DNA of 64,000 nt from a virus. Shown here in pieces: positions 2,689 through 43,397 of the stretch. The notes under the pieces were generated by a model. That model was given only the letters and a program-made list of their open reading frames with translations, was not told the DNA's origin and made no database searches. The first letter of the stretch is position 1; the number at the start of each line of letters is the position of its first letter. Where the stretch lies: IMG/VR virus record IMGVR_UViG_3300025697_000003. One strand, written 5' to 3'. Both the position numbers and the translations under genes were made by a program.

Positions 2689-5600
2689 ATGGCAGGAGAA
2701 GCTGGCAGTCTAGGTAGAGCGTTTGTAGAGATCCATGTGCCTGTTGAGGCGTTTGCGTCTCAGATGTCATCTGTTGGAACGACATTTACATCTCAGACAT
2801 CAAGAATGATCGCAGAGGCCCAATTGGTCTCTGCTGCCATTGGTTCTGCGAATGCGGGAATCATCTCCAGCTACAACGCTGTTGCTACTTCTGTCATGGG
2901 GCTTCTTACCGCCCAAGAGTTGGCAATCCTGTCAACGAACAATCTTGCCCTTGCCCTTCATCACGGAGATGTAGCTGCACGATCGATGGCTGCAGGCGGA
3001 GTCGTCTTAGGGACTGGAATGGCCGCAGGAGCGGCAGGGATTAAGGCGACAACATTCTCTCTGGCATCCCTTATGTCGATGGCTAAGTCTGTCCTCCCAT
3101 TCATGGCCGCATTCATGGCTGTCTCAAAGACGATTGGGATCGCAAGCGGTGCTGTCACTGCACAACGCGAATACAACAAAGAACTCTATCAGTTGTGGAC
3201 GTTGACTGATCTCACTGTTGAAGGGATTGGTGAGCTCAGTGATGAGATCCGAGATCTTACCCATGATTACAACGTGTTCGCCAAGGCTGGCGCGAAGGCA
3301 ATGTACCAGATTTACAGTGCTACGTTCTTTGCGGACGACGCGACAGAAATCTTAGAGCAGGGCATGAAAGCAGCAGCGGCTGGAGCTACTGATTTGGTCT
3401 CTGCCGTTGATATGACGACAACAGTTTTGAACGCTTACGGAATGGCTGCATCAGAAGCCAGCAGAATCAATGATTTGTTGTTCACTACTGTAAGGTACGG
3501 AAAAACTACGTATGAAGAACTTGCCGGGCAATTCGGTAGATTGGCTGGTGTTGCGGCTCCTGCTGGTGCGCGTATCGAAGAAATGACCGCTGCAATTGCA
3601 ACTCTTACCAGACAGGGGATCATGACAGACTGGGCGGTCACATCTCTACGTCAGACGATCATGTCAATGTTCCGTCCTACTGGAGCATTGGCTGGAGTAA
3701 TCAGGGCCCTTGGGTACGAAACAGGTAGGGCATTGATCACTGAGAATGGATTCGTTGAAGCATTGAAGATGATCAAGCAGGAAGCAGATGCGGCAGGAAT
3801 GCCTCTTGAGAACCTGTTCACAAACGTTCGTGCGATCACTGCTGTACTCCCGTTGCTGACAACGGCATCTGTAGGCTTCGCACTAGATGTTGATCGTATG
3901 GCAGACTCATTAGGTGCGATGGACACAGCCTTCGAAAAGATGGAACAAGATTGGGACTACCGGCTTGAAACATTGAAGTCGCAGCTAAACGATGTATCCC
4001 TCACGATTGGCGAGATGCTCATGCCGGCTGTCGAAGCATTTATGACAGTGTGGGTTGGCTTCTCAGAGGTGATGGAGAAAGGAATAGAAGTCCTTGGGCC
4101 ATTTGGTCAAGGGATGGGCGCCCTAGCTGGCTGGGTTTCCGGCGCGGCTGTTTCTGTTGGTGCGCTGACTGCCGCGATATGGTTGCTAAATAAGGCTTTC
4201 ATTGCCTTAGCTGCTAATCCAGTTGTTGCTGCGCTGGGAACCGTTGCTCTCGCTATCAGTGTAATCGTTTCGCAGATAATGGATGCGAACAGTGCTGTGC
4301 ATACACTCGCTGATGAGATCCGAGGATTGCCAACGCCGGGGACAGTCGAGGCAGGGAGAATAGGGATGCCCACGGCTTCTGCTGACATCGTTGCCAAGTT
4401 CACTCCAGAGATCAACTCCTTCCTTGAAAAGTGGACAGAGATTATGGATCGGTACTCAGGGCCTGGTGCAGCAGTACAAGTAGAATCATGGCTCCCCAAC
4501 CTCATCAGAGAACTCGAATTTGAGGCAATGCCTACTTACACAGGTGGATTCTCTCGACAATCTCCATTTGCCTTAACAATCGACAACGCGCCCGTGCGCG
4601 AAGCAATCATTGCCACTCTAATCTCTGGTGTTGAAGATCCTAGTGTAGCGAGAGCTATTGCCGATAGCTTTGGTATGTCGGCAAAACTCGGATTATCGGG
4701 GAGCGACTTCTCAATGGACTCCTCTGGTTTATCTTCTTCCGTTTTCTACGACGCGAAGGTTGCCATCGCTGCAGCGCGGACAGAGTTTGATGCTCTCTGG
4801 TCGTCTATCCAGAACGGGACAGTTGTTGTAGAAGAGGGAGAAACACAGATAGATGCCGTTATGGACGCATGGGGCGACATGGGAGATATTGCCCAATCAT
4901 CCGCAGAATTCCTGAAGCTCATGGTAGACACCTTGGGTGTAGCCCCTGAACAAGCGGCGTTGCTGCAAGGGCTGGTCGAGGAGATGTTGGCCATTGCCGG
5001 CGTTACTGATGAGGTAATGATGGGCTTTGTCGAAGAGACCTACGCTCTCATTGCAGCATTCGGGGCGGCAGAAGAAGGATCGGCTGATCAGGCGCAGATA
5101 CTGGGAGAACTGGCGGGCAGATATAAGACAGCGGCTGGATGGATGGAGACATTTAAGAAGGCTGGGATTGAAGCAGACGCTGAATTGGTCGACTTGATCG
5201 CGGCGTTTGAAGTATTCAATTTTGCCGTTGACGAGGGGACCGATAGTTTTATTGATGAAACCACAAAACTAATCGCTGCGTACAAACTTCTTGATGAAGG
5301 ATCAGAAGAGCAGGCTGCGGCCCTCACAGAGTTGACGTCGCGTTATCAGACAACGGCACAGTGGACGGAGTTGCTTGCGTCGGTTGGGAAAGAAGCTGAC
5401 GAGGAATTAGTTGGTCTTATCGCTTCGCTGGAAGAACTTGGGATCAAGCTAAAAGACACGACGAAGGCGGTGGACCCATTTGATGTAGCCACCTACAAGC
5501 TACTTACAACATACGACGAAGCCACAGATGGGTCTATCCTGCAAGCGGAGGCACTCTCGGCTTTGTCGGGGAGATACTCGACGGCGACCGGATGGTTAGA

Positions 5601-7728
5601 GCAATTTGCCGCTGTGGGAACTGTGGCAGACACGGTTCTGTTGGACTTGATCGCGGCGTTAGAAGCAATCGGGTTGACTGGAGAGGCCGCGACGAAGGGG
5701 TTCGTCGACGAAACAAACGCACTAATTACAGCATTTGGGTTAGCAGACAAAGGATCAGCTAAACAGGCAGATATTCTTGACGACCTTGCCTCTCGATACT
5801 CGACAGTAACTGGATGGATTGAGGCATTGAGTGCGGTTGGCATTGAAGCGAGTGAAGCTCTCACGCTACTCGTTGCTGCTCTGGAAGAAGTTGGCCTCAA
5901 AGCAGTAGCAGCTGCTGAGAAGACGTTCGTTCAAACGACGTATGAGCTTATTGCTACGTATGATGCGGCGACAGAAGGATCAGTTGCTCAGGCAGAAGCC
6001 CTTCAGTCATTGGCTGGACGATACCAGACTGCGATTGGGTTGGAGGAGTTGCTTACTAGCAAAGGGATCGAGGCAGATGACGAACTCGTTTTGCTAATTA
6101 AAGACCTCGAGAAGTTCGCGGAAGCAGCAGAAGAAGCCGGGGTCGATCTCGTTAATGTTACATCAAAGATGGTAACTGGCGTTGGGCAGCTACTAAAAAA
6201 GTTTGGTGGAGAGGGAGCACAAGGCGCAGGTAGCATCCTGACATCATTAGGAGCATCTATTGGCTCTGTCGGACTAGCAGTGGCTGCTCCAAATCCTATG
6301 ACGATAGGCAACGCGATCCTTGCCGTTGCCGACACAGTTGGAACAGCCTGGATGGAACTTGTTGTAAATCCAGCCGCCGACGCTGAAGAGGAACGTATCA
6401 AAACTGAAGAGGAAAGGCTCGCAGCAGAGCAGGAATTCACAGATAACTTGCTACACGCTGCCGATGCAGCTGCATCAGCATTATGGGGCCTTGTCGAGTC
6501 GGCAGAGTCAGTGGCCGAAATACAGAGCGGCCTTGCCCAACTCCAAGTAAACGTCATGAGCTCATTGCTGGCCTTCCTGTGGCCTCTGGCGGGCATCCTT
6601 GGGTACATCAACGAACTGTTCGTGATACAGGCAGATGTGATAGAGGATGAGGTTGAGGCAAGAGAGAAGATGCTGTCTAACCTTAACGTACCGATTGGCT
6701 TCCCGATCAACAGGATCCGGTTCGCTGCGGGGACACCTGGCGAGCCTGTAACGTTCAACGAAGACGAGATAGGTGGCGGTGCGGATGAGATAGTTGCTGA
6801 GATACTTACGTGGTGGGAAGAGGCACTTGAGCCATTTAGGGATCAGATCATGGAGATGATCCAGCCTATTGCCGACTTCAGGGACGCAATGCAGCAACTA
6901 GCAATCGACTTAATTCCTGCCATGCTGACGATCCTGGAACCTATCCTGGACACATTCGGATGGGCGCTTGGCGAGATTTCCACGTGGATGCAGGATGTAT
7001 TCAAGCCAGATTTCGAGGAGTTCGCAGAGGGCTTTGCGACATTCTGGGAAGACAGGGTAGACCCATTCTGGAAAGAAGACATGTTCCCTCAACTAACAGA
7101 ATGGTTTGACACACTGTACGGCTGGCTTGGCGACATCATCGGATTCTTCGGAGATGAAGGATGGGACTTCCTCACAGACGAGGGTGGTGTGTGGGATAAA
7201 GTTGTAGGATTTGTCGATTCCGTGTTCGATATGTTCTCAGAGTTCGGGCAATGGGTAGACGATAACTGGGAGACGATCGAGAATGTACTCCTGAAACGTA
7301 TTCAAGACGCTCTAGATGCTCTTGGGATAGATCTAGACGACTTTCTCCGCAGAGTAGAGAACTGGCTACTGGGCGGAACATGGGAGCAAGCCGACGAACC
7401 ATCGTGGATTACTAAGTTCCTTACAGGACTAGGCGAGATGAGGGACGCGATCGTTGCTGTACCAGAACCGTTACGAGATATTGCAGGCGTACTGGAAGGG
7501 TTCGCAAACTGGTTAGGCATAGATTATGAATCGTCTGGAGCGATGTCTGTGCAACCTGTCGCTGCAGGTATGGGTGTGGCAGGCGGGATGGGATCTGCTG
7601 GCAAATCAGCAGTAACGATCAACGTCAACCTGTCTCAGGAACGACTCAGCCAAATCATGATCCGTAAAATGACTAGCCAGAATGTGAATGATCACGGCGT
7701 AGGATTTGCGCCAATCAGGGTGGGATAA
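2689..7728 (+). CDS. Tape measure protein
   Basis: 1679 aa. N-terminal helical and TM-like segments, five tandem ~74-aa repeats and an aromatic-rich C-terminal region. Located after the chaperone pair. Confidence 0.9.
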   Translation: MAGEAGSLGRAFVEIHVPVEAFASQMSSVGTTFTSQTSRMIAEAQLVSAAIGSANAGIISSYNAVATSVMGLLTAQELAILSTNNLALALHHGDVAARSMAAGGVVLGTGMAAGAAGIKATTFSLASLMSMAKSVLPFMAAFMAVSKTIGIASGAVTAQREYNKELYQLWTLTDLTVEGIGELSDEIRDLTHDYNVFAKAGAKAMYQIYSATFFADDATEILEQGMKAAAAGATDLVSAVDMTTTVLNAYGMAASEASRINDLLFTTVRYGKTTYEELAGQFGRLAGVAAPAGARIEEMTAAIATLTRQGIMTDWAVTSLRQTIMSMFRPTGALAGVIRALGYETGRALITENGFVEALKMIKQEADAAGMPLENLFTNVRAITAVLPLLTTASVGFALDVDRMADSLGAMDTAFEKMEQDWDYRLETLKSQLNDVSLTIGEMLMPAVEAFMTVWVGFSEVMEKGIEVLGPFGQGMGALAGWVSGAAVSVGALTAAIWLLNKAFIALAANPVVAALGTVALAISVIVSQIMDANSAVHTLADEIRGLPTPGTVEAGRIGMPTASADIVAKFTPEINSFLEKWTEIMDRYSGPGAAVQVESWLPNLIRELEFEAMPTYTGGFSRQSPFALTIDNAPVREAIIATLISGVEDPSVARAIADSFGMSAKLGLSGSDFSMDSSGLSSSVFYDAKVAIAAARTEFDALWSSIQNGTVVVEEGETQIDAVMDAWGDMGDIAQSSAEFLKLMVDTLGVAPEQAALLQGLVEEMLAIAGVTDEVMMGFVEETYALIAAFGAAEEGSADQAQILGELAGRYKTAAGWMETFKKAGIEADAELVDLIAAFEVFNFAVDEGTDSFIDETTKLIAAYKLLDEGSEEQAAALTELTSRYQTTAQWTELLASVGKEADEELVGLIASLEELGIKLKDTTKAVDPFDVATYKLLTTYDEATDGSILQAEALSALSGRYSTATGWLEQFAAVGTVADTVLLDLIAALEAIGLTGEAATKGFVDETNALITAFGLADKGSAKQADILDDLASRYSTVTGWIEALSAVGIEASEALTLLVAALEEVGLKAVAAAEKTFVQTTYELIATYDAATEGSVAQAEALQSLAGRYQTAIGLEELLTSKGIEADDELVLLIKDLEKFAEAAEEAGVDLVNVTSKMVTGVGQLLKKFGGEGAQGAGSILTSLGASIGSVGLAVAAPNPMTIGNAILAVADTVGTAWMELVVNPAADAEEERIKTEEERLAAEQEFTDNLLHAADAAASALWGLVESAESVAEIQSGLAQLQVNVMSSLLAFLWPLAGILGYINELFVIQADVIEDEVEAREKMLSNLNVPIGFPINRIRFAAGTPGEPVTFNEDEIGGGADEIVAEILTWWEEALEPFRDQIMEMIQPIADFRDAMQQLAIDLIPAMLTILEPILDTFGWALGEISTWMQDVFKPDFEEFAEGFATFWEDRVDPFWKEDMFPQLTEWFDTLYGWLGDIIGFFGDEGWDFLTDEGGVWDKVVGFVDSVFDMFSEFGQWVDDNWETIENVLLKRIQDALDALGIDLDDFLRRVENWLLGGTWEQADEPSWITKFLTGLGEMRDAIVAVPEPLRDIAGVLEGFANWLGIDYESSGAMSVQPVAAGMGVAGGMGSAGKSAVTINVNLSQERLSQIMIRKMTSQNVNDHGVGFAPIRVG
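5026..6138. repeat. Five tandem ~222-231-nt coding repeats inside the tape measure gene
   Basis: Repeat starts at 5026, 5248, 5479, 5701 and 5926. Each encodes F(V/I)(D/E)ET..LI.A(Y/F)....EGS..QA..L..L..RY.T..GW.E....(V/A)G.EA.E.L..LI..LE. Confidence 0.85.
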
Positions 7729-16359: not shown

Positions 16360-16974
16360 ATGGCGACCGAGACGCTTAGGCCGAATGCGGCGGGTGATGA
16401 GACAGCCATTGCCGATCAATATCCTGACTCAACAGCGCACTGGGATAAGGTGGATGAAGCAGTCGCGGATGACGATACTACTTATCTGCAAGATGTAGGT
16501 GGAACCTATGCCCGCGACTTTTACAATATACCAGATTCGGTAGGAAGCGGAACGATAAGTTCCATCAAAGTTTATGCTGACGTGAGATGTACTGGCGCAC
16601 CAGCGCAAGCCAGCGTAAAAATCGTCATCAAGTCTGGTACTGGAACAGGTGCGCCAGACACAGCCGATGAAGGCAGCGAATTGACTATTACCACTAGCTA
16701 TGTTCTCCGCTCAGAATCATGGGCCACGAATCCTGCCACCTCCGCTGCTTGGACTTGGGATGAAATAGACAAGCTGCAAATTGGTATCTCTATGAGGAAA
16801 GCCTCAATAGTCCCTGAGGCAAGTCGGTGCACCCAAGTCTACGTCGAGGTGGATTATACGGCAGGTAGCGCAACCAGCATCAAGACAGTCATGGGCGTAC
16901 CAATCGCTGACATCAAGACAGTCAACGGGGTAGCAATCGCAGATGTGAAATCATTCATCGGAGTATCGACGTAG
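16360..16974 (+). CDS. Hypothetical tail-fibre-module protein
   Basis: 204 aa, with GGAGGAGGTGG upstream. Starts LRPNAAGDET...HWDKVDE. C-terminal short repeats (PIADIKTVNGVAIADVKS). Confidence 0.55.
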   Translation: MATETLRPNAAGDETAIADQYPDSTAHWDKVDEAVADDDTTYLQDVGGTYARDFYNIPDSVGSGTISSIKVYADVRCTGAPAQASVKIVIKSGTGTGAPDTADEGSELTITTSYVLRSESWATNPATSAAWTWDEIDKLQIGISMRKASIVPEASRCTQVYVEVDYTAGSATSIKTVMGVPIADIKTVNGVAIADVKSFIGVST

Positions 16975-28767: not shown

Positions 28768-29679
28768 ATGCCAGCAAAAGGCACGACACGGCGAGAACCG
28801 TGGAACCCAATACTCAAATCATATCCATTCAGTGAACGAGTAAATGCTGTCTCTGTTGGCGCAGAAACCCTGTTCACACGTCTGGTCGCTCAGGCAGACG
28901 ATTATGGCAACTACTACGGCAGTCCAGTCAAGATTCTTGCATACCTATATGGTCATCGCTTTGCTGCGGGGCACGTTACCGCTACGGATACGGGCCGTTG
29001 GCGTACCGAACTCGTATCGAACAAGGTCGGACCACTCATTTGCATGTACTCGATTCAGGGTGAAGAGTACCTCCATTTGATCAATCCGAGGAGAAGGATT
29101 CGCAAGGATGTTGCCCCCGATATTAGGTTTCCTAGAGAACCAGCAAACATAGAAGAGAAGGCTATTCTAGAACAACGTATCGAAAACGGGCCGGGGACGG
29201 GCCGTGGACGGTGCGCTAGACTAGACCTAGACCTAGACAAGACCCAGACTAGACTAGACCCAGAAAAACTATTGGTCGAAAAAGATTCGACCGATCTATT
29301 CGAAATCTTCTGGAAAGAATTCCTAACCATGAAACGCAATGACGGGAAGATAGCAGCAAGAAAAGCATGGATCACTACCACCGTGAATGGACGAACTGGG
29401 AAAGTGAATGGACACAAGCCGATTGATCCATCTGTGATCTTAAATGCGGCAAAGAATTATCGGGAATTCTGCATTGCCGAAGGGACAGCACCGAACATGA
29501 TCAAACTTCCTGCTACGTTCGTTGGGCCTGATCGCCACTGGGAAGACTGGAAGAACCATCGAAAGCCATCGAGCAACGGTAGCGGCGGCAATAGCGGCAA
29601 GCGACTGATAGACACAGGTGGATACCGTCACGGCAAAGAGGATTTTCTGAGGACAAATGATAGCAAGGAGGAATCATGA
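28768..29679 (+). CDS. Replication initiator / replisome organiser-like protein
   Basis: 303 aa. C-terminal FEIFWKEF....GKIAARKAW motif is typical of DnaD/phage initiator C-domains. Directly upstream of the DnaC-like loader. Contains an internal repeat array. Confidence 0.55.
   Translation: MPAKGTTRREPWNPILKSYPFSERVNAVSVGAETLFTRLVAQADDYGNYYGSPVKILAYLYGHRFAAGHVTATDTGRWRTELVSNKVGPLICMYSIQGEEYLHLINPRRRIRKDVAPDIRFPREPANIEEKAILEQRIENGPGTGRGRCARLDLDLDKTQTRLDPEKLLVEKDSTDLFEIFWKEFLTMKRNDGKIAARKAWITTTVNGRTGKVNGHKPIDPSVILNAAKNYREFCIAEGTAPNMIKLPATFVGPDRHWEDWKNHRKPSSNGSGGNSGKRLIDTGGYRHGKEDFLRTNDSKEES
29216..29264. repeat. Array of TAGAC pentamers (iteron-like), candidate origin
   Basis: CTAGACTAGACCTAGACCTAGACAAGACCCAGACTAGACTAGACCCAGA holds 6 perfect copies plus 3 variants at 5-6 nt spacing. 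Followed by an A/T-rich stretch and the inverted repeat GGTCGAA-aaaga-TTCGACC. Confidence 0.5.
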
Positions 29680-30341
29680 TCAGCGGGACAACCATTGGAG
29701 ACAGATATGCGGCAACAAGTTTTGACACATTCGAGGCTACGAATCAATCTGGCAACAAGGCGCTTGAAGCGTGTAAGAGATTGGCAAGCGGCAAATCAGA
29801 TGGTGTCATCCTGTGCGGACCTGTTGGCACTGGAAAGACGCACCTGCTGATCTCAACAGTGAAAGAGTTCAATCGGCTGCGGACTTACATCCCTGCTGAA
29901 GAGAGCGGACCTGAAATTGAAGTGCCTCCGATTGCAGACTTGATGGCTGGACAGTATGGAGAAGTCGATAGATCTGCACCGTACTTGACGCGAGCAGAGA
30001 TATCCGTTGTCGCCAAGGTCCACTACTGGATGATCTTGGATCTTGCCAAGGCGTTGAGGGACGATGCGCTTGACAGCCACGGAACGATGACAGAAGAGTG
30101 CATGACGTGCCATCTGTTGGTCATCGACGATCTTGGGAGAGAGAAGGAATCCGAGTTCCTTCGACAAGAGATCGAGAGGGTCATCGACTTTAGATATCGC
30201 CAGATGTTGCCGACAGCAATCGCTACGAATCACAAACTTGATGAACTGTATGACGTGTACGGCGAACACATGATGTCGAGGCTGCAGCAATCGTGCGAGA
30301 TCGTTGAAGTTCTTGGGAATGACTATCGCAGGAAGAGTTGA
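29676..30341 (+). CDS. DnaC/IstB-like AAA+ helicase loader
   Basis: Walker A GPVGTGKTHLL and Walker B LLVIDDLG. ATGA overlap with the initiator gene. Confidence 0.85.
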   Translation: MISGTTIGDRYAATSFDTFEATNQSGNKALEACKRLASGKSDGVILCGPVGTGKTHLLISTVKEFNRLRTYIPAEESGPEIEVPPIADLMAGQYGEVDRSAPYLTRAEISVVAKVHYWMILDLAKALRDDALDSHGTMTEECMTCHLLVIDDLGREKESEFLRQEIERVIDFRYRQMLPTAIATNHKLDELYDVYGEHMMSRLQQSCEIVEVLGNDYRRKS

Positions 30342-36915: not shown

Positions 36916-37506
36916 TTAAAGCGCAACGGTCTGATGGACGATTTCGATATCGTCGTCATTCAGCCCGAGGTACAACATGGTCTCTCGTTGGTTCGAGTGA
37001 TTGAATGCCGCCTGTACTACTGCCAACTGCTGATCGAACGTAACGACAGCGTGATAACCGAAAGTCTTTCGCAGTGAATGGGCAGCGATAGGATCCTGAA
37101 TTCCCACACGCTTCGCCTCAATCCCCATCTGCCGCGAAAGGTGCTCGCGGCTGTAGACTTCTCGCGTGATTGGATTCCTGAATATCGCCTCATCTCGCTC
37201 GGGGATACGCCCGAGGCTATCCAAGAGGAACCGGAGAGATTCGACAACATTCTCGTTGATGAATATCCGCCGTGGCTTATTCGTCTTCTTCTCAATGAGC
37301 GTGAGGTGGTCACGCATCGTGGTCGTACCATCAAGCCACACTGAGCTCCACGTCAATCCCCGGAGATCGGATACGCGCAGGTTGGTATTGCAGCCAGTGA
37401 CGAAGAAGCAATACATCGCCGCTGTCTTCTCCGTCTTCAAGTTTCGCCTAATTCGCTGGATATGGTCTATTCGCCTAATCGGGTGTACACGGATCATCTT
37501 AATCAC
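36916..37506 (-). CDS. int: Minimal tyrosine recombinase (catalytic domain only, 196 aa)
   Basis: Candidate catalytic residues: R in LRVSDL, HSLRKTF (HxxR), FNHS and TMLYLG (Tyr). No N-terminal core-binding or arm-binding domain. Confidence 0.8.
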   Translation of the reverse strand: MIKMIRVHPIRRIDHIQRIRRNLKTEKTAAMYCFFVTGCNTNLRVSDLRGLTWSSVWLDGTTTMRDHLTLIEKKTNKPRRIFINENVVESLRFLLDSLGRIPERDEAIFRNPITREVYSREHLSRQMGIEAKRVGIQDPIAAHSLRKTFGYHAVVTFDQQLAVVQAAFNHSNQRETMLYLGLNDDDIEIVHQTVAL

Positions 37507-40897: not shown

Positions 40898-41182
40898 TCA
40901 GATATTACCTATAAATGGCGACAGTCTCAATACCCTTGCCCCGTCGCTATGTCTCGCCGTATAATGGTCGTATGTCACGCTTATCCCTTTCACGCAGCAC
41001 GAAGAAGAATAACGCCGAAAACGCAGCAGGGCTGCAAAGGACAGCACCCCATCTAACACGGAAGCCTGGGGTGCCAAAGGAGTGTCTTTCGACGGGTCCT
41101 TGCTGCTCAGCCCTGTCATTTCCCCGTGACGCGAGCAGTCGTCTTCCAGGGCCACACTTTGCTGGATACGGAGAGTTCGCAT
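40898..41182 (-). CDS. Possible 94-aa CDS (ambiguous region)
   Basis: GAGGGAG lies 5 nt before ATG 41182, and the stop is 15 nt before the next gene. The product is low-complexity and an equally long + strand ORF overlaps it. Confidence 0.3.
   Translation of the reverse strand: MRTLRIQQSVALEDDCSRHGEMTGLSSKDPSKDTPLAPQASVLDGVLSFAALLRFRRYSSSCCVKGISVTYDHYTARHSDGARVLRLSPFIGNI
40902..40930 (-). promoter_or_regulatory. Candidate sigma70-like promoter (minus strand)
   Basis: Minus-strand TTGAGA-17 nt-TAATAT, upstream of the SD of gene 40490..40882. Confidence 0.4.
40936..40965 (+). promoter_or_regulatory. Candidate sigma70-like promoter (plus strand)
   Basis: TTGCCC-18 nt-TATAAT, facing the Thr-protease gene about 390 nt downstream. 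Confidence 0.4.
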
Positions 41183-41356
41183 GGTCGCTCCCTCATCCGT
41201 CCCTCGACCTTGACCGCGGCTTGGACCATCAAGTACGGTTATCGGCATGGGTAGGGTTCATGTGTTGCAGCACTACGCTGATCAAGACAATCACCCCCTT
41301 TGTAGTCCACGCGGGACTACCACACAGAATAGGCGAGAACTGATGGAAGAGTCAAT

Positions 41357-42244
41357 ATGAGGGATGACAATCCTCTAACAATGGCAGACCTCCCATCATT
41401 CCCGATAGAACGGGAGAGATACGGCCCTTTGTACGCTTTCTGGGACGGGGTTGCGCCAATGTACATGGAAGAGGTGTATACTCTTCCCAATATGACTCTA
41501 TGTGTCGCAGTTGCAGCAAAAGACGGTGTTGTTTTGGGTACAGATACACAGGAAACACGATCGGATGGATCCAAACGCAATGGCGTCAGCAAGATTGTAG
41601 AAGTTAGCGACACGATGGCCGTAGGGCTTTCTGGAACTGGGAATGTTGCCAAGGGTATTCTAGGACACCATGGCCTATTGGAACATGCGCGAAGTCTGAA
41701 AGACGCAGACCAGATCGGAGACTTCTTCGGCAGTTGCTTCCTGGGAAGCGTCCAAGGGCACTCGCATAGGCCAGACTTTTATAGGGAAACATATGACTTG
41801 AAAAACGGTGCGGTTGATCCGAAAGTTCTAGATCTGCGACTACTGCTTGCATCCTTCGACGGGGAAGCATCTATTGGAGAGGTATCTCCTCAGACTGGCT
41901 ATTCATTTGCCCCGATGCAGAGAGCGCATTGCATAGGAGTAAATGCCTTTGCAAACGCCCTCCTTCCAACGCTTGCCCCAATTGGGAAGCCTTTGCCAAC
42001 AGTTGCCGAAGCAGAGATAATTGTGGCGTTATGCCTGATGGTTACAGCAGATCGCTTTTATGGTGTCGGCGAGCCATTTGACATTGTGAGGATTACAAAG
42101 GGAAAGATAGAGCGATATAGCACCGCAGAGAAACCACAAGTGTTGAAATCGGCTAGGAAGTTGTGCAAAGCATGGAAAGAAATGTTCAGGATCATCTCTG
42201 AAGAAGCGTCTAGCAACTCTGAAGAACTAAATCCATCAACTTAG
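41357..42244 (+). CDS. Proteasome beta-subunit / HslV-like Ntn threonine protease with 46-aa propeptide
   Basis: Reads ...NM|TLCVAVAAKDGVVLGTDTQETRSDGSKRNGVSKIVEV. Counting from T47 gives Thr1, Asp17 and Lys33. Followed by AVGLSGTGNVA. Confidence 0.7.
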   Translation: MRDDNPLTMADLPSFPIERERYGPLYAFWDGVAPMYMEEVYTLPNMTLCVAVAAKDGVVLGTDTQETRSDGSKRNGVSKIVEVSDTMAVGLSGTGNVAKGILGHHGLLEHARSLKDADQIGDFFGSCFLGSVQGHSHRPDFYRETYDLKNGAVDPKVLDLRLLLASFDGEASIGEVSPQTGYSFAPMQRAHCIGVNAFANALLPTLAPIGKPLPTVAEAEIIVALCLMVTADRFYGVGEPFDIVRITKGKIERYSTAEKPQVLKSARKLCKAWKEMFRIISEEASSNSEELNPST

Positions 42245-42500
42245 CCCTTTCATCCCTGTGCGAGCATCTAAACGCGAACTCATCCAGATATTCCTGTAGA
42301 TGGATGGCCGATACATGATGGTAGACACCGACGAGTCCTCGCTTGAAAAGCGACCACGCATTCTCCACATGGTTCACGTGCACACCATTCTCTGAGTAGT
42401 GGAGCCAATGATTGACAGTACGATGTAGCCCGAACTTGGACAGGATCTTGAACCGCCGCGCTTGGTCTGTGTAGATCGTCTTGACATAACCAAGGTTCAT
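42210..42500 (-). pseudogene. IS1595-family (ISXO2-like) transposase C-terminal fragment
   Basis: 96 aa: TDQARRF...HRTVNH....GVHVNHVENAWSLFKRGLVGVYHHVSAIHLQEYLDEFAFRCSHR. The N-terminal zinc ribbon and DDE portion are absent. Confidence 0.7.
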
Positions 42501-42689
42501 GGTACATACGCGGTTGATCTCAGCGTGAGTGAGCCTATCAATGCGTGTGTCCTAAGTGCAAAAACCCTTATTGGGATAGACCTAGACGCGATTCACAGAA
42601 GAAGAACTAACACACACAAGGTAGGTGCGCTCTTGAATTCACAAGGCCTAATTCCGTACTCTGCTGCATCAAAGGGATAAGGGGGTCGT

Positions 42690-43397
42690 ATGTCCTCAAA
42701 TGGTACAACCAAGAAAAGGGTAACAGATTACGATTGGCCCGCTTTGCTCGCTGAATTCCTTACCCAGCCTACGATGTCTATTCAAGATTTCGCAGAGTTC
42801 AAGGGTGTACCGTTCTCCACTGTCAAGAATCACAGCGATAAGAAAGGCGATTGGATAACCAAGCGTAATCAGCATTACAGAGAGATCCACCAACTCACTT
42901 TCGATCGTATCGCAGGCATCATTGCCGAAACTCGTGCAGATGACATCTCATCTTTCAGAGCACTAGAAGAACGCCTGCAGGCCGTTGTCCTCAAATCGCT
43001 TGAATTGCTATTCCCGCCAGAAGATGCACCGCTTGAGGCCGTTCTAGCAGCAACCGCACGACTCGAGGAAATGTCAGCGGACAAACTAAGCACGATCATA
43101 AACACCGGCATGAGAACGCTAACCGAGACAGGCAGGCATCGACGTCTATTATCTGGACAAGCAACCGCCATTTTCTCGCGTGCTGAATTGCCCGATATTG
43201 AGCTTCCTATCCCGCTGGAAGAAGCTAAAATGTTGGAATTACGCAGCAGATTAGCACAACAAGCCCTCAACGCTATCGACAACGGGCAACCGCTTGACGT
43301 GGAGTACACCGTGGCAGAATCGCCTGAGATCGCCGGAGATCCTGACCCCGTGGCCAGTTCCGCCGGTTCGCCTGGAGTTCGCCGCCACAAAGAATAG
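42690..43397 (+). CDS. HTH protein, terminase-small-subunit-like architecture
   Basis: Contains MSIQDFAEFKGVPFSTVKNHSDKKGDWITKR, then a long helical region and an acidic/Pro tail. GGGGG-type SD. Not adjacent to terL. Confidence 0.45.
   Translation: MSSNGTTKKRVTDYDWPALLAEFLTQPTMSIQDFAEFKGVPFSTVKNHSDKKGDWITKRNQHYREIHQLTFDRIAGIIAETRADDISSFRALEERLQAVVLKSLELLFPPEDAPLEAVLAATARLEEMSADKLSTIINTGMRTLTETGRHRRLLSGQATAIFSRAELPDIELPIPLEEAKMLELRSRLAQQALNAIDNGQPLDVEYTVAESPEIAGDPDPVASSAGSPGVRRHKE

Follow-up and report, generated by a model that had tools for sequence, protein, structure and literature searches.

In a 2021 survey, Fuchs, Alva, and Lupas described 22 families of proteasome homologs, among which PPH, AAH, CPH, PMI-4, and DAH are associated with phages (PMC8665760). 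The survey found no informative genomic context for the orphan homologs, and confined propeptides to beta subunits and HslV (PMC8665760). For the IS1595 family of insertion sequences (ISs), the "transporter IS" (tIS) with passenger genes is an established organization (PMC5704250; PMC3129680), and the target-site duplications are 8 bp long (PMC5704250). Here we describe a locus at which a proteasome homolog and an IS1595-family element occur together. It is located in a 64,000-nucleotide stretch of viral DNA (IMG/VR record IMGVR_UViG_3300025697_000003; hereafter the window), in which a gene for a proteasome-like N-terminal nucleophile (Ntn) hydrolase lies inside a 1,710-bp IS1595-family element (40976–42685). 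A previous sequence-only reading had regarded this gene as solitary and the transposase remnant at its 3' end as incidental. The best explanation overall, which we consider probable, is that the protease is a passenger of a crippled IS1595 tIS, i.e., hitch-hiking cargo in the phage.

Structure of the element in the window

The element is flanked by two direct copies of the target-site duplication TCGTATGT, on the left at 40968..40975 and on the right at 42686..42693. Between them are a cargo-side terminal inverted repeat CACGCTTATCCCTTTCACGCAGCA (40976..40999, plus strand), a 357-nt spacer (41000..41356, plus strand), the protease gene (41357..42244, plus strand), the last 110 codons and stop of an IS1595-family DDE transposase (42210..42542, minus strand), a transposase-side subterminal region (42543..42661, minus strand), and the transposase-side terminal inverted repeat (42662..42685, minus strand; reverse complement CCCCCTTATCCCTTTGATGCAGCA). 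The two terminal inverted repeats, with their outer bases, are 24 bp each and match at 20 of 24 positions. Their 21-nt core, GCTTATCCCTTTCACGCAGCA, is located at 40979–40999 (plus strand) and is identical to the cargo-side end of L020, a related element described below; an inverted copy with three mismatches is found at 42662–42682. These two matches in the window compare with 0.00 expected from 100 shuffles, and the pair was also recovered by a repeat search (inverted pair I1). In addition, the repeat search returned a direct repeat (D6), GGTCGTATGTC, at 40966–40976 and 42684–42694, which holds the 8-bp TCGTATGT.

The similarity to L020 extends into the interior of the element. Positions 41321–41370 of the window align with L020 858–908 at 44 of 51 positions, covering the last ~36 nt of the spacer (41321–41356), a conserved 5' leader with a Shine-Dalgarno (SD)-like GGAAGAG, and the first five codons of the protease gene. 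The transposase remnant (42542..42213, minus strand) matches PF12762 (E 5.9e-19; profile positions 78–151 of 153) and its 3' end covers, in antisense, the final 11 codons and the stop codon of the protease gene, so the convergent IS1595 overlap noted in the sequence-only reading is real. The remnant is 91% identical to the L020 transposase in amino acid sequence and ~88% identical in nucleotide sequence, and this similarity stops sharply at 42542. Beyond this point, the 143 nt at 42543–42685, kept after an internal deletion, align to L020 2713–2845. The ~700 bp that correspond to L020 ~2013–2712 are deleted in the window, and the first ~170 transposase codons are gone.

Because inverted repeats and an 8-bp target duplication bound the gene together with the remnant, the sequence comparison indicates that the window copy arose by genuine transposition and lost its autonomy afterwards. 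Such an element could move only with a transposase supplied in trans. The same structure is present in all phage contigs that carry the protease gene. An index lists the protease open reading frame (ORF) in 39 blocks of the collection, and 23 phage contigs were read; these come from several samples, and all 23 share an intact, 100% identical protease ORF next to a truncated transposase.

Two other interpretations of the structure were rejected. First, the segment at 41237–41256 (GGTTATCGGCATGGGTAGGG, with four mismatches to one repeat type) was considered as an element end, and was rejected because the exact 21-nt match to L020, its inverted partner, and the duplication are found at 40979/42662. 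Second, a model in which simple ISs had repeatedly targeted the 3' end of the gene was rejected, as the repeats enclose the cargo and the duplications flank the whole unit. Rfam, promoter, and terminator scans yielded nothing informative. As a separate observation, GGTTATCGGCATGGGTAGGG in the spacer is similar to the alternative repeat type of this IS clade (four mismatches to GTTTATCGGnnTGAnTTAGG). It may be what remains of an older element end, which would point to nested capture as the route of cargo exchange, or a chance match; one other four-mismatch match to GTTTATCGGnnTGAnTTAGG occurs in the window, at 16480.

Pairing with IS1595 transposases in related loci

A convergent IS1595 transposase or its remnant abuts or overlaps the protease 3' end in all 11 clade loci examined. 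These are the window, the other close-family loci (L008, L010, L014, L015, L016, and L019), and the loci of four distant relatives, namely P0014 (L021), P0015 (L020), P0016 (L023), and P0017 (L022). The transposase is full-length in L014, L015, and L020 and frameshifted in L008 and L023. The other flanks differ by locus and include phage genes, GntR/ABC transporter genes, aconitase, DprA/NDK/ValRS, and a SmaI-like gene. Only the more distant P0008 type occurs without the transposase, in an integrative mobilisable element. The description of the gene as solitary is thus not borne out, as gene and remnant form one transposon with a pairing that recurs in every clade locus examined. The search for conserved neighbors proposed in that reading succeeded for the IS1595 transposase and recovered no conserved phage neighbor. 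Nor is the upstream divergent small gene conserved: a Zn-ribbon ORF of weak similarity (BLASTP E 7e-5) is common to L008 and L015 alone. This ORF is Cys-rich (CxxC…CxxC) and ~96 aa long; in L015 (1281–1571, minus strand) and L008 (1872–2165, minus strand) it separates the protease from the element end, and it is absent from the window.

A scan of GTDB genomes by transposase alignment identified 80 loci, the closest of which are in metagenome-assembled genomes (MAGs) of Bipolaricaulota, Thermotogota, Parcubacteria, and Ignavibacteria. With these transposase loci available for comparison, the element ends could be defined. Two repeat types were found. One, GGCGTTTATCGG(C/G)(T/G)TGA(C/G)TTAGG, bounds L015, L038, L034, L035, L037, L040, and L041; the other, ..GCTTATCCCTTT(N)..GCAGCA, bounds the element in the window, L020, L023, L024, L026, L029, and L031. 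Perfect 8-bp duplications are present in L015, L020, L023, L024, L026, L031, L034, L037, and L040. Among these, L015 (duplication AAGGCCGT) encloses a 96-aa Zn-ribbon ORF, the close-family protease P0005, and the transposase; L020 (ACAAAGGC) carries P0015, L023 (ATGTGTGT) carries P0016, and L026 (ACACCTGT) has a proteasome-like ORF as its cargo. In L038, both inverted repeats surround a proteasome-like ORF, and the duplication is not clean, as a second element abuts. The 32-nt inverted repeat of L015 had been considered as a hairpin resembling repetitive extragenic palindromes; this was rejected because the repeat is flanked by the 8-bp duplication AAGGCCGT and recurs in 12 other loci, which identifies it as an element end. 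Generic inverted-repeat searches gave no signal above noise outside L015 and L041, whether they covered the surroundings of the transposase only or of cargo and transposase together.

The cargo of the related elements is diverse. DNA methyltransferase genes (~390–410 aa) are found in L040 (1759–2937) and L073 (4630–5865), with an additional 220-aa ORF in L040, and L034 and L035 carry a conserved pair of small ORFs (109–113 aa and 157–164 aa). L041 is an element of 928 bp with a transposase only. In the Bipolaricaulota locus L075, proteasome-like ORFs are located on each side of the transposase (2012–2788 and 4845–5615, both on the minus strand). L038 (1475–5643) consists of two same-clade elements arranged head-to-tail, 14 nt apart, in a Bipolaricaulis MAG, and the second of these contains a probable proteasome-like ORF that starts with MTIIRAEY. 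Among the 11 related elements that were found through the transposase alone and have definable ends, three carry proteasome-like cargo.

This last proportion, together with the exclusive pairing in 11 of 11 clade loci and the convergent overlapping 3' ends that are conserved across ~25–84% protein identity, could be explained if the protease is an accessory of the transposon. In such a case, it may regulate transposition by cleaving or degrading the transposase or a host factor, or convergent transcription may provide antisense control of the transposase. However, close elements have unrelated cargo (methyltransferases and small proteins) or, as in L041, none, and the protease is intact where the transposase is frameshifted (L008 and L023) or deleted (the window). 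We consider an accessory role to be quite unlikely.

The identities of cargo and backbone are discordant among elements. Between the window and L020, the repeat core is identical at 21 of 21 positions, the leader at 44 of 51, and the transposase at ~88% of nucleotides, whereas the cargo proteins are only ~25% identical. Between the window and L010, the cargo is 81% identical in nucleotide sequence, whereas the transposase remnants share only ~46% amino acid identity. This discordance shows that cargo bodies and transposon backbones have been exchanged between elements. A more far-reaching proposal is that the clade proteases are functional transposon components (self-activating Thr proteases directed against a transposase, host, or rival protein) or conflict effectors, exchanged like cassettes among IS1595 backbones. 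This proposal is fairly unlikely in our judgment; if true, the phage copy would be a transposon-derived proteolytic weapon or regulator.

Fold, active site, and distribution of the protease

The 295-aa ORF is present in the window as first quoted, according to both the ORF list and the sequence itself. It matches PF00227 (Proteasome) over residues 49–95 with 30.4 bits, above the gathering score of 22.4. Matches to the NCBIfam equivalogs of archaeal and bacterial beta subunits (TIGR03634 and TIGR03690) are weak (17.7 and 13.6 bits compared with cut-offs of 224 and 192). In a phmmer search of the PDB, residues 47–95 align without gaps to the Archaeoglobus fulgidus beta subunit (1j2q_H and 6he5), with T47 at Thr1, D63 at position 17, K79 at Lys33, and G93 at Gly47. 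In the corresponding alignment with Mycobacterium tuberculosis PrcB, T47 falls on the processed Thr and the pro-segment is partly aligned as well. All four residues are invariant in both protease-family alignments, such that the exact Thr1-Asp17-Lys33 spacing reported from the sequence alone is upheld. Their codons are at 41495–41497 (T47), 41543–41545 (D63), 41591–41593 (K79), and 41633–41635 (G93) on the plus strand.

An AlphaFold2 model built from ten sequences has a core pLDDT of >90, with predicted strands S1–S4 at residues 48–54, 57–63, 80–84, and 87–93 and two helix pairs. A long C-terminal helix is predicted at residues 260–288, and residues 1–41 are predicted to be disordered, as are residues 135–153 of a pore-loop insertion that spans ~135–159 overall. 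In a Foldseek search of the PDB, this model had 1194 matches at E <= 0.001; the best 50 of these are all 20S proteasome subunits (E 2e-11 to 3e-10), and TM scores reach 0.78 when normalized to 1j2q_H. The proteasome-type Ntn-hydrolase fold of the ORF at 41357–42244 is therefore confirmed, far beyond chance. Based on Pfam, phmmer, the alignments, AlphaFold2, and Foldseek, the mature Ntn-hydrolase domain is assigned from T47 to the stop (41495..42244, plus strand), and sequence and model together place the protein as a divergent member of the proteasome-beta/HslV/Anbu superfamily of N-terminal-threonine hydrolases.

Some positions of the active site are less clear. For the Thr1-orienting residues Ser129, Asp166, and Ser169, the archaeal beta "GSG" lies opposite "CIG" in family alignment A2, and residues 230–238 (TADRFYGVG) lie opposite "KRDSASG" with the Asp and Ser unmatched; both alignments are uncertain at such distance. 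The lack of evident equivalents of Ser129, Asp166, and Ser169 would fit a protein that keeps the fold and has another chemistry, either a scaffold without catalysis or, as in connectase, a sequence-specific ligase/transpeptidase. Connectase combines the same fold with a different chemistry (PMC7980362; described in PMC8665760), and the pore-loop insertion might interfere with the assembly of rings, a point raised for PHI and PMI-3/4 (PMC8665760). However, Thr1, Asp17, Lys33, and Gly47 are invariant across the clade, helices H1/H2 are present in the model, unlike in connectase, and the best Foldseek matches are canonical beta subunits. A change of chemistry thus appears very unlikely.

The protease family is rare. 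A word-indexed search of 5.8 billion proteins recovered only five close relatives (47–84% identity), and an exhaustive HMMER scan of 1.84 billion cluster representatives recovered 63 proteins at E <= 1e-3 and nine at E <= 1e-10. No homologs of the protease were found in GenBank phages, IMG/VR, or GTDB species representatives, and a metagenome scan added only one locus (L019). The ten members that were looked up are all metagenomic proteins, and all but one are singleton clusters. When the family profile was compared with the PDB, archaeal beta and also alpha subunits were the best among the 60 matches listed of 80 (E <= 1), and no HslV, Anbu, or BPH chains were among those 60, even though Anbu and BPH structures (5LOX and 5OVS) are in the PDB. 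The same pattern of PDB matches was described for the "group II/WPH-like" homologs (PMC8665760). Among viral proteins, the match to PHROG 1040 ("peptidase HslV family") is weak (E 0.0024), and BFVD contains 15 structural matches, including an "HslV" of an uncultured Caudovirales. Because phage proteasome homologs, including PPH, AAH, CPH, PMI-4, and DAH (PMC8665760), are already documented, the premise that a proteasome-type protease would be unprecedented as phage cargo fails.

N-terminal pro-segment and start codon

The pro-segment comprises codons 1–46 (41357..41494, plus strand), ends in M46, and was delimited by the open frame, a conserved motif, and the proportions of nonsynonymous and synonymous differences (pN/pS). 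The reading frame is open upstream of the Thr in all six close loci, where the motif R-[YFW]-G-P-x-[YH]-x-F-W-D-x-[VI]-A-x4-[MI]-E-[DE]-V-Y-T-[LV]-P-x-M, directly followed by T, is conserved (also written RYGPLYAFWD.VAPMYMEDVYTLPxM). Changes in this segment cluster at third codon positions. The Nei-Gojobori pN/pS is 0.17–0.42 for the 28 codons before Thr47, compared with 0.02–0.40 over the 48 codons that open the mature domain. In our reading of the sequences, five of the six loci have a purine-rich SD-like stretch in the 20 nt that precede the long-form start; in the window, it is the SD-like GGAAGAG, 5 nt before ATG 41357. The purifying selection on the 28 codons and the SD-like site at the long-form start make it well supported by the sequence comparisons that the pro-segment is translated and conserved, rather than an annotation artifact. 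The N-terminal extension of the sequence-only reading is consequently retained.

Gly at position -1 is typical of self-processing beta subunits. Because the residue at this position is Met in the protease family, autoprocessing between M46 and T47 is only plausible. Most of the distant relatives begin with Met-Thr (MTL/MTI), and that Met aligns with M46 (profile position 30); since these relatives start directly at Met-Thr, a short form could be functional. Translation may accordingly begin at M46 (ATG 41492) with no pro-peptide, such that methionine aminopeptidase exposes Thr47 and the long isoform is non-productive or regulatory. The invariance of M46, its alignment with residue 1 of most of the distant relatives, the missing Gly at -1, the parallels of Anbu, BPH, and HslV, and the restriction of propeptides to beta subunits and HslV (PMC8665760) are all consistent with such a start. 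On the other hand, purifying selection is as strong on the 28 upstream codons as on the core, and the SD-like stretch precedes the long-form start in five of six loci. The 11 nt before ATG 41492 (CTCTTCCCAAT) are without an SD, the nearest GGAAGAGG being 16 nt upstream. Moreover, L020 shares the long-form start and the leader, and its cargo P0015 likewise carries an extension, of 25 aa. A short start as the productive form is therefore considered unlikely, and translation from ATG 41357 is preferred.

Several smaller features were observed in and around the pro-segment. The pro-segment codons for MEEVYTLP contain a possible 7-bp hairpin (41467–41487, GGAAGAG-GTGTATA-CTCTTCC), located 4 nt before the ATG of M46. 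In every family member, the V-Y-T codons form a palindrome (GTATAC or GTGTACAC), which may simply result from codon choice. The nucleotide motif sAGGATAGCsGAGAAs is conserved 20–45 nt upstream of the protease start (window 41325–41340; L008 2185–2200; L015 1618–1633; L019 104–119). Because it is in no constant reading register, this motif is probably a promoter, operator, or leader element of the cargo gene. Finally, the protease gene of L019 (158–949) has an in-frame stop between GLL and HARTL, and the adjacent transposase frame looks intact. This copy may be a pseudogene or reflect a sequencing error, and the upstream half of its pro-segment is not conserved.

Insertion site and phage surroundings

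The element sits between two divergent phage operons, at the start of a phage 235-aa ORF (42690..43397), whose ATG (42690) is contained in the right target-site duplication. The reconstructed empty site reads TATAAT-GGTCGT-ATG TCC TCA (TATAATGGTCGTATGTCCTCAAATGG around the junction), with a -10 box 6 nt before the ATG of the 235-aa gene. This short distance suggests that the mRNA of the 235-aa gene was leaderless before the insertion, which now puts 1.7 kb between the gene and its promoter. Related phages without the insertion were searched for and none were found. At the left end of the element, two ORFs (40898–41248, minus strand, and 40915–41343, plus strand) straddle position 40976, and because of this the 94-aa gene called there is probably spurious or a hybrid.

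No second proteasome-like ORF and no alpha subunit were found in the window. Likewise, no unfoldase and no HslU-like ORF were found among the two of five Walker-A ORFs that were scanned; one of the two is an IstB/DnaC-like ATPase (29676–30338; PF01695, E 1e-11), and the other has no Pfam match. Within that scope, the absence of both partners first reported for this gene holds. Elsewhere in the window, the IstB/DnaC-like ATPase is preceded by a 303-aa ORF without a Pfam match, and this pair (28768–30338) may be a phage helicase-loader pair or an IS21-like remnant. A tyrosine-recombinase ("Phage_integrase") ORF at 36916–37503 (minus strand; 195 aa) consists of the catalytic domain only and may be truncated.

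Defense, counter-defense, or lysogeny regulation had been suggested as the role of the protease. Nothing was found in support of these roles; PADLOC gave no match for the protease or its neighbors, and the gene entered the phage by transposition. The phage may nevertheless have co-opted the protease for one of these functions, with the transposon acting only as a delivery vehicle. Such co-option would fit the complete identity of the protease ORF in 23 of 23 phage contigs next to a truncated transposase, the reassortment of cargo on conserved backbones (a pattern often found at conflict loci), the DNA methyltransferases carried by sister elements, and the finding of P0008, a more distant type, within an integrative mobilisable element. 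However, PADLOC is negative for both protein and neighbors, no phage neighbor is conserved, the family is absent from the IMG/VR and GenBank phages searched, all other members are in non-phage contexts, and identity across the contigs may reflect one recent phage population. In our view, co-option is improbable, and the most likely status of the protease in the phage is that of hitch-hiking transposon cargo. The phage context is thereby read as a transposon insertion that separates a phage gene from its promoter, and not as an evolved phage module.

Proposed origin and activity

In the proposed sequence of events, a tIS transposed into the phage intergenic region, duplicating TCGTATGT exactly at the start codon of the 235-aa gene. 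The element then lost ~700 bp, including the first ~170 transposase codons, and became non-autonomous with both inverted repeats kept. From ATG 41357, a 295-aa precursor is presumably made, and its pro-segment would be removed between M46 and T47, probably autocatalytically on assembly. The exposed hydroxyl and free alpha-amine of Thr47 may then act with D63 and K79, with G93 as the oxyanion hole, in peptide-bond hydrolysis. By analogy with Anbu and BPH, the protease would work without a dedicated ATPase, in an ATP-independent and probably homo-oligomeric form. Both the activity and the processing are predicted.

Several observations weigh against this combined explanation. The protease is intact and identical in 23 phage contigs while the transposase decayed, which could mean selection for a phage function. 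For L008 and L010, element ends were not found. With respect to the predicted chemistry, the equivalents of the Thr1-orienting residues Ser129, Asp166, and Ser169 are not evidently conserved, and the pore-loop insertion (135–159) is disordered in the predicted model. Finally, residue -1 is Met in every member, and most of the distant relatives start at Met-Thr.

The orphan homologs (Anbu, BPH, and the 22 families) are without known function, and the present clade offers a strict and testable genomic context. With two genes and two 24-bp ends, the element is a compact system in which the use of a stand-alone proteasome-like protease to a mobile element can be studied.

Comparison with known systems

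In the paper library that was searched, none names both "IS1595" and "proteasome". With the 22 families of Fuchs et al. compared by description, the link to IS1595 and the conserved pro-segment of a proteasome homolog appear to be unreported. The apparent novelty lies in a rare clade: at every locus examined it is paired with an IS1595 transposase or a remnant of one, its pro-segment is conserved, and it is reassorted in a cassette-like manner.

Compared with 20S beta subunits (A. fulgidus 1J2Q/6HE5 and PrcB), which are the best PDB sequence matches of the window protease, the fold, the Thr1/Asp-Glu17/Lys33/Gly47 spacing, and the presence of a pro-segment before Thr1 are shared. In contrast to these subunits, the window protease has Met instead of Gly at -1, an insertion of ~25 residues after H2, a long C-terminal helix, and carriage by a transposon, and no alpha subunit or unfoldase was found with it in the window.

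The orphan homologs (HslV, Anbu, BPH, and the 22 families) resemble the window protease in being encoded by a single gene without a co-encoded ATPase and in their association with mobile elements and phages. The variations in the pore loop and the C-terminal helix are as described for group II, PHI, and PMI (PMC8665760), and the predicted long C-terminal helix resembles H5 of Anbu. In contrast to the survey, which confines propeptides to beta subunits and HslV and reports no informative context (PMC8665760), this clade has both a conserved pro-segment and a conserved IS1595 transposase partner.

Finally, the element agrees with IS1595 tISs (Siguier, Gagnevin, and Chandler, 2009; e.g., tISCpe8 and MTnSag1) in its DDE_Tnp_IS1595 transposase, repeats of ~24 bp, 8-bp duplications, and a passenger located between the transposase and one end. 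The window copy, which keeps its ends and has no functional transposase, resembles a mobile insertion cassette. Known tISs carry resistance or mobilisation genes, whereas the passenger here encodes a proteasome homolog. Two further differences are the convergent arrangement of cargo and transposase, whose 3' ends overlap, and the reassortment of cargo alleles among backbones.

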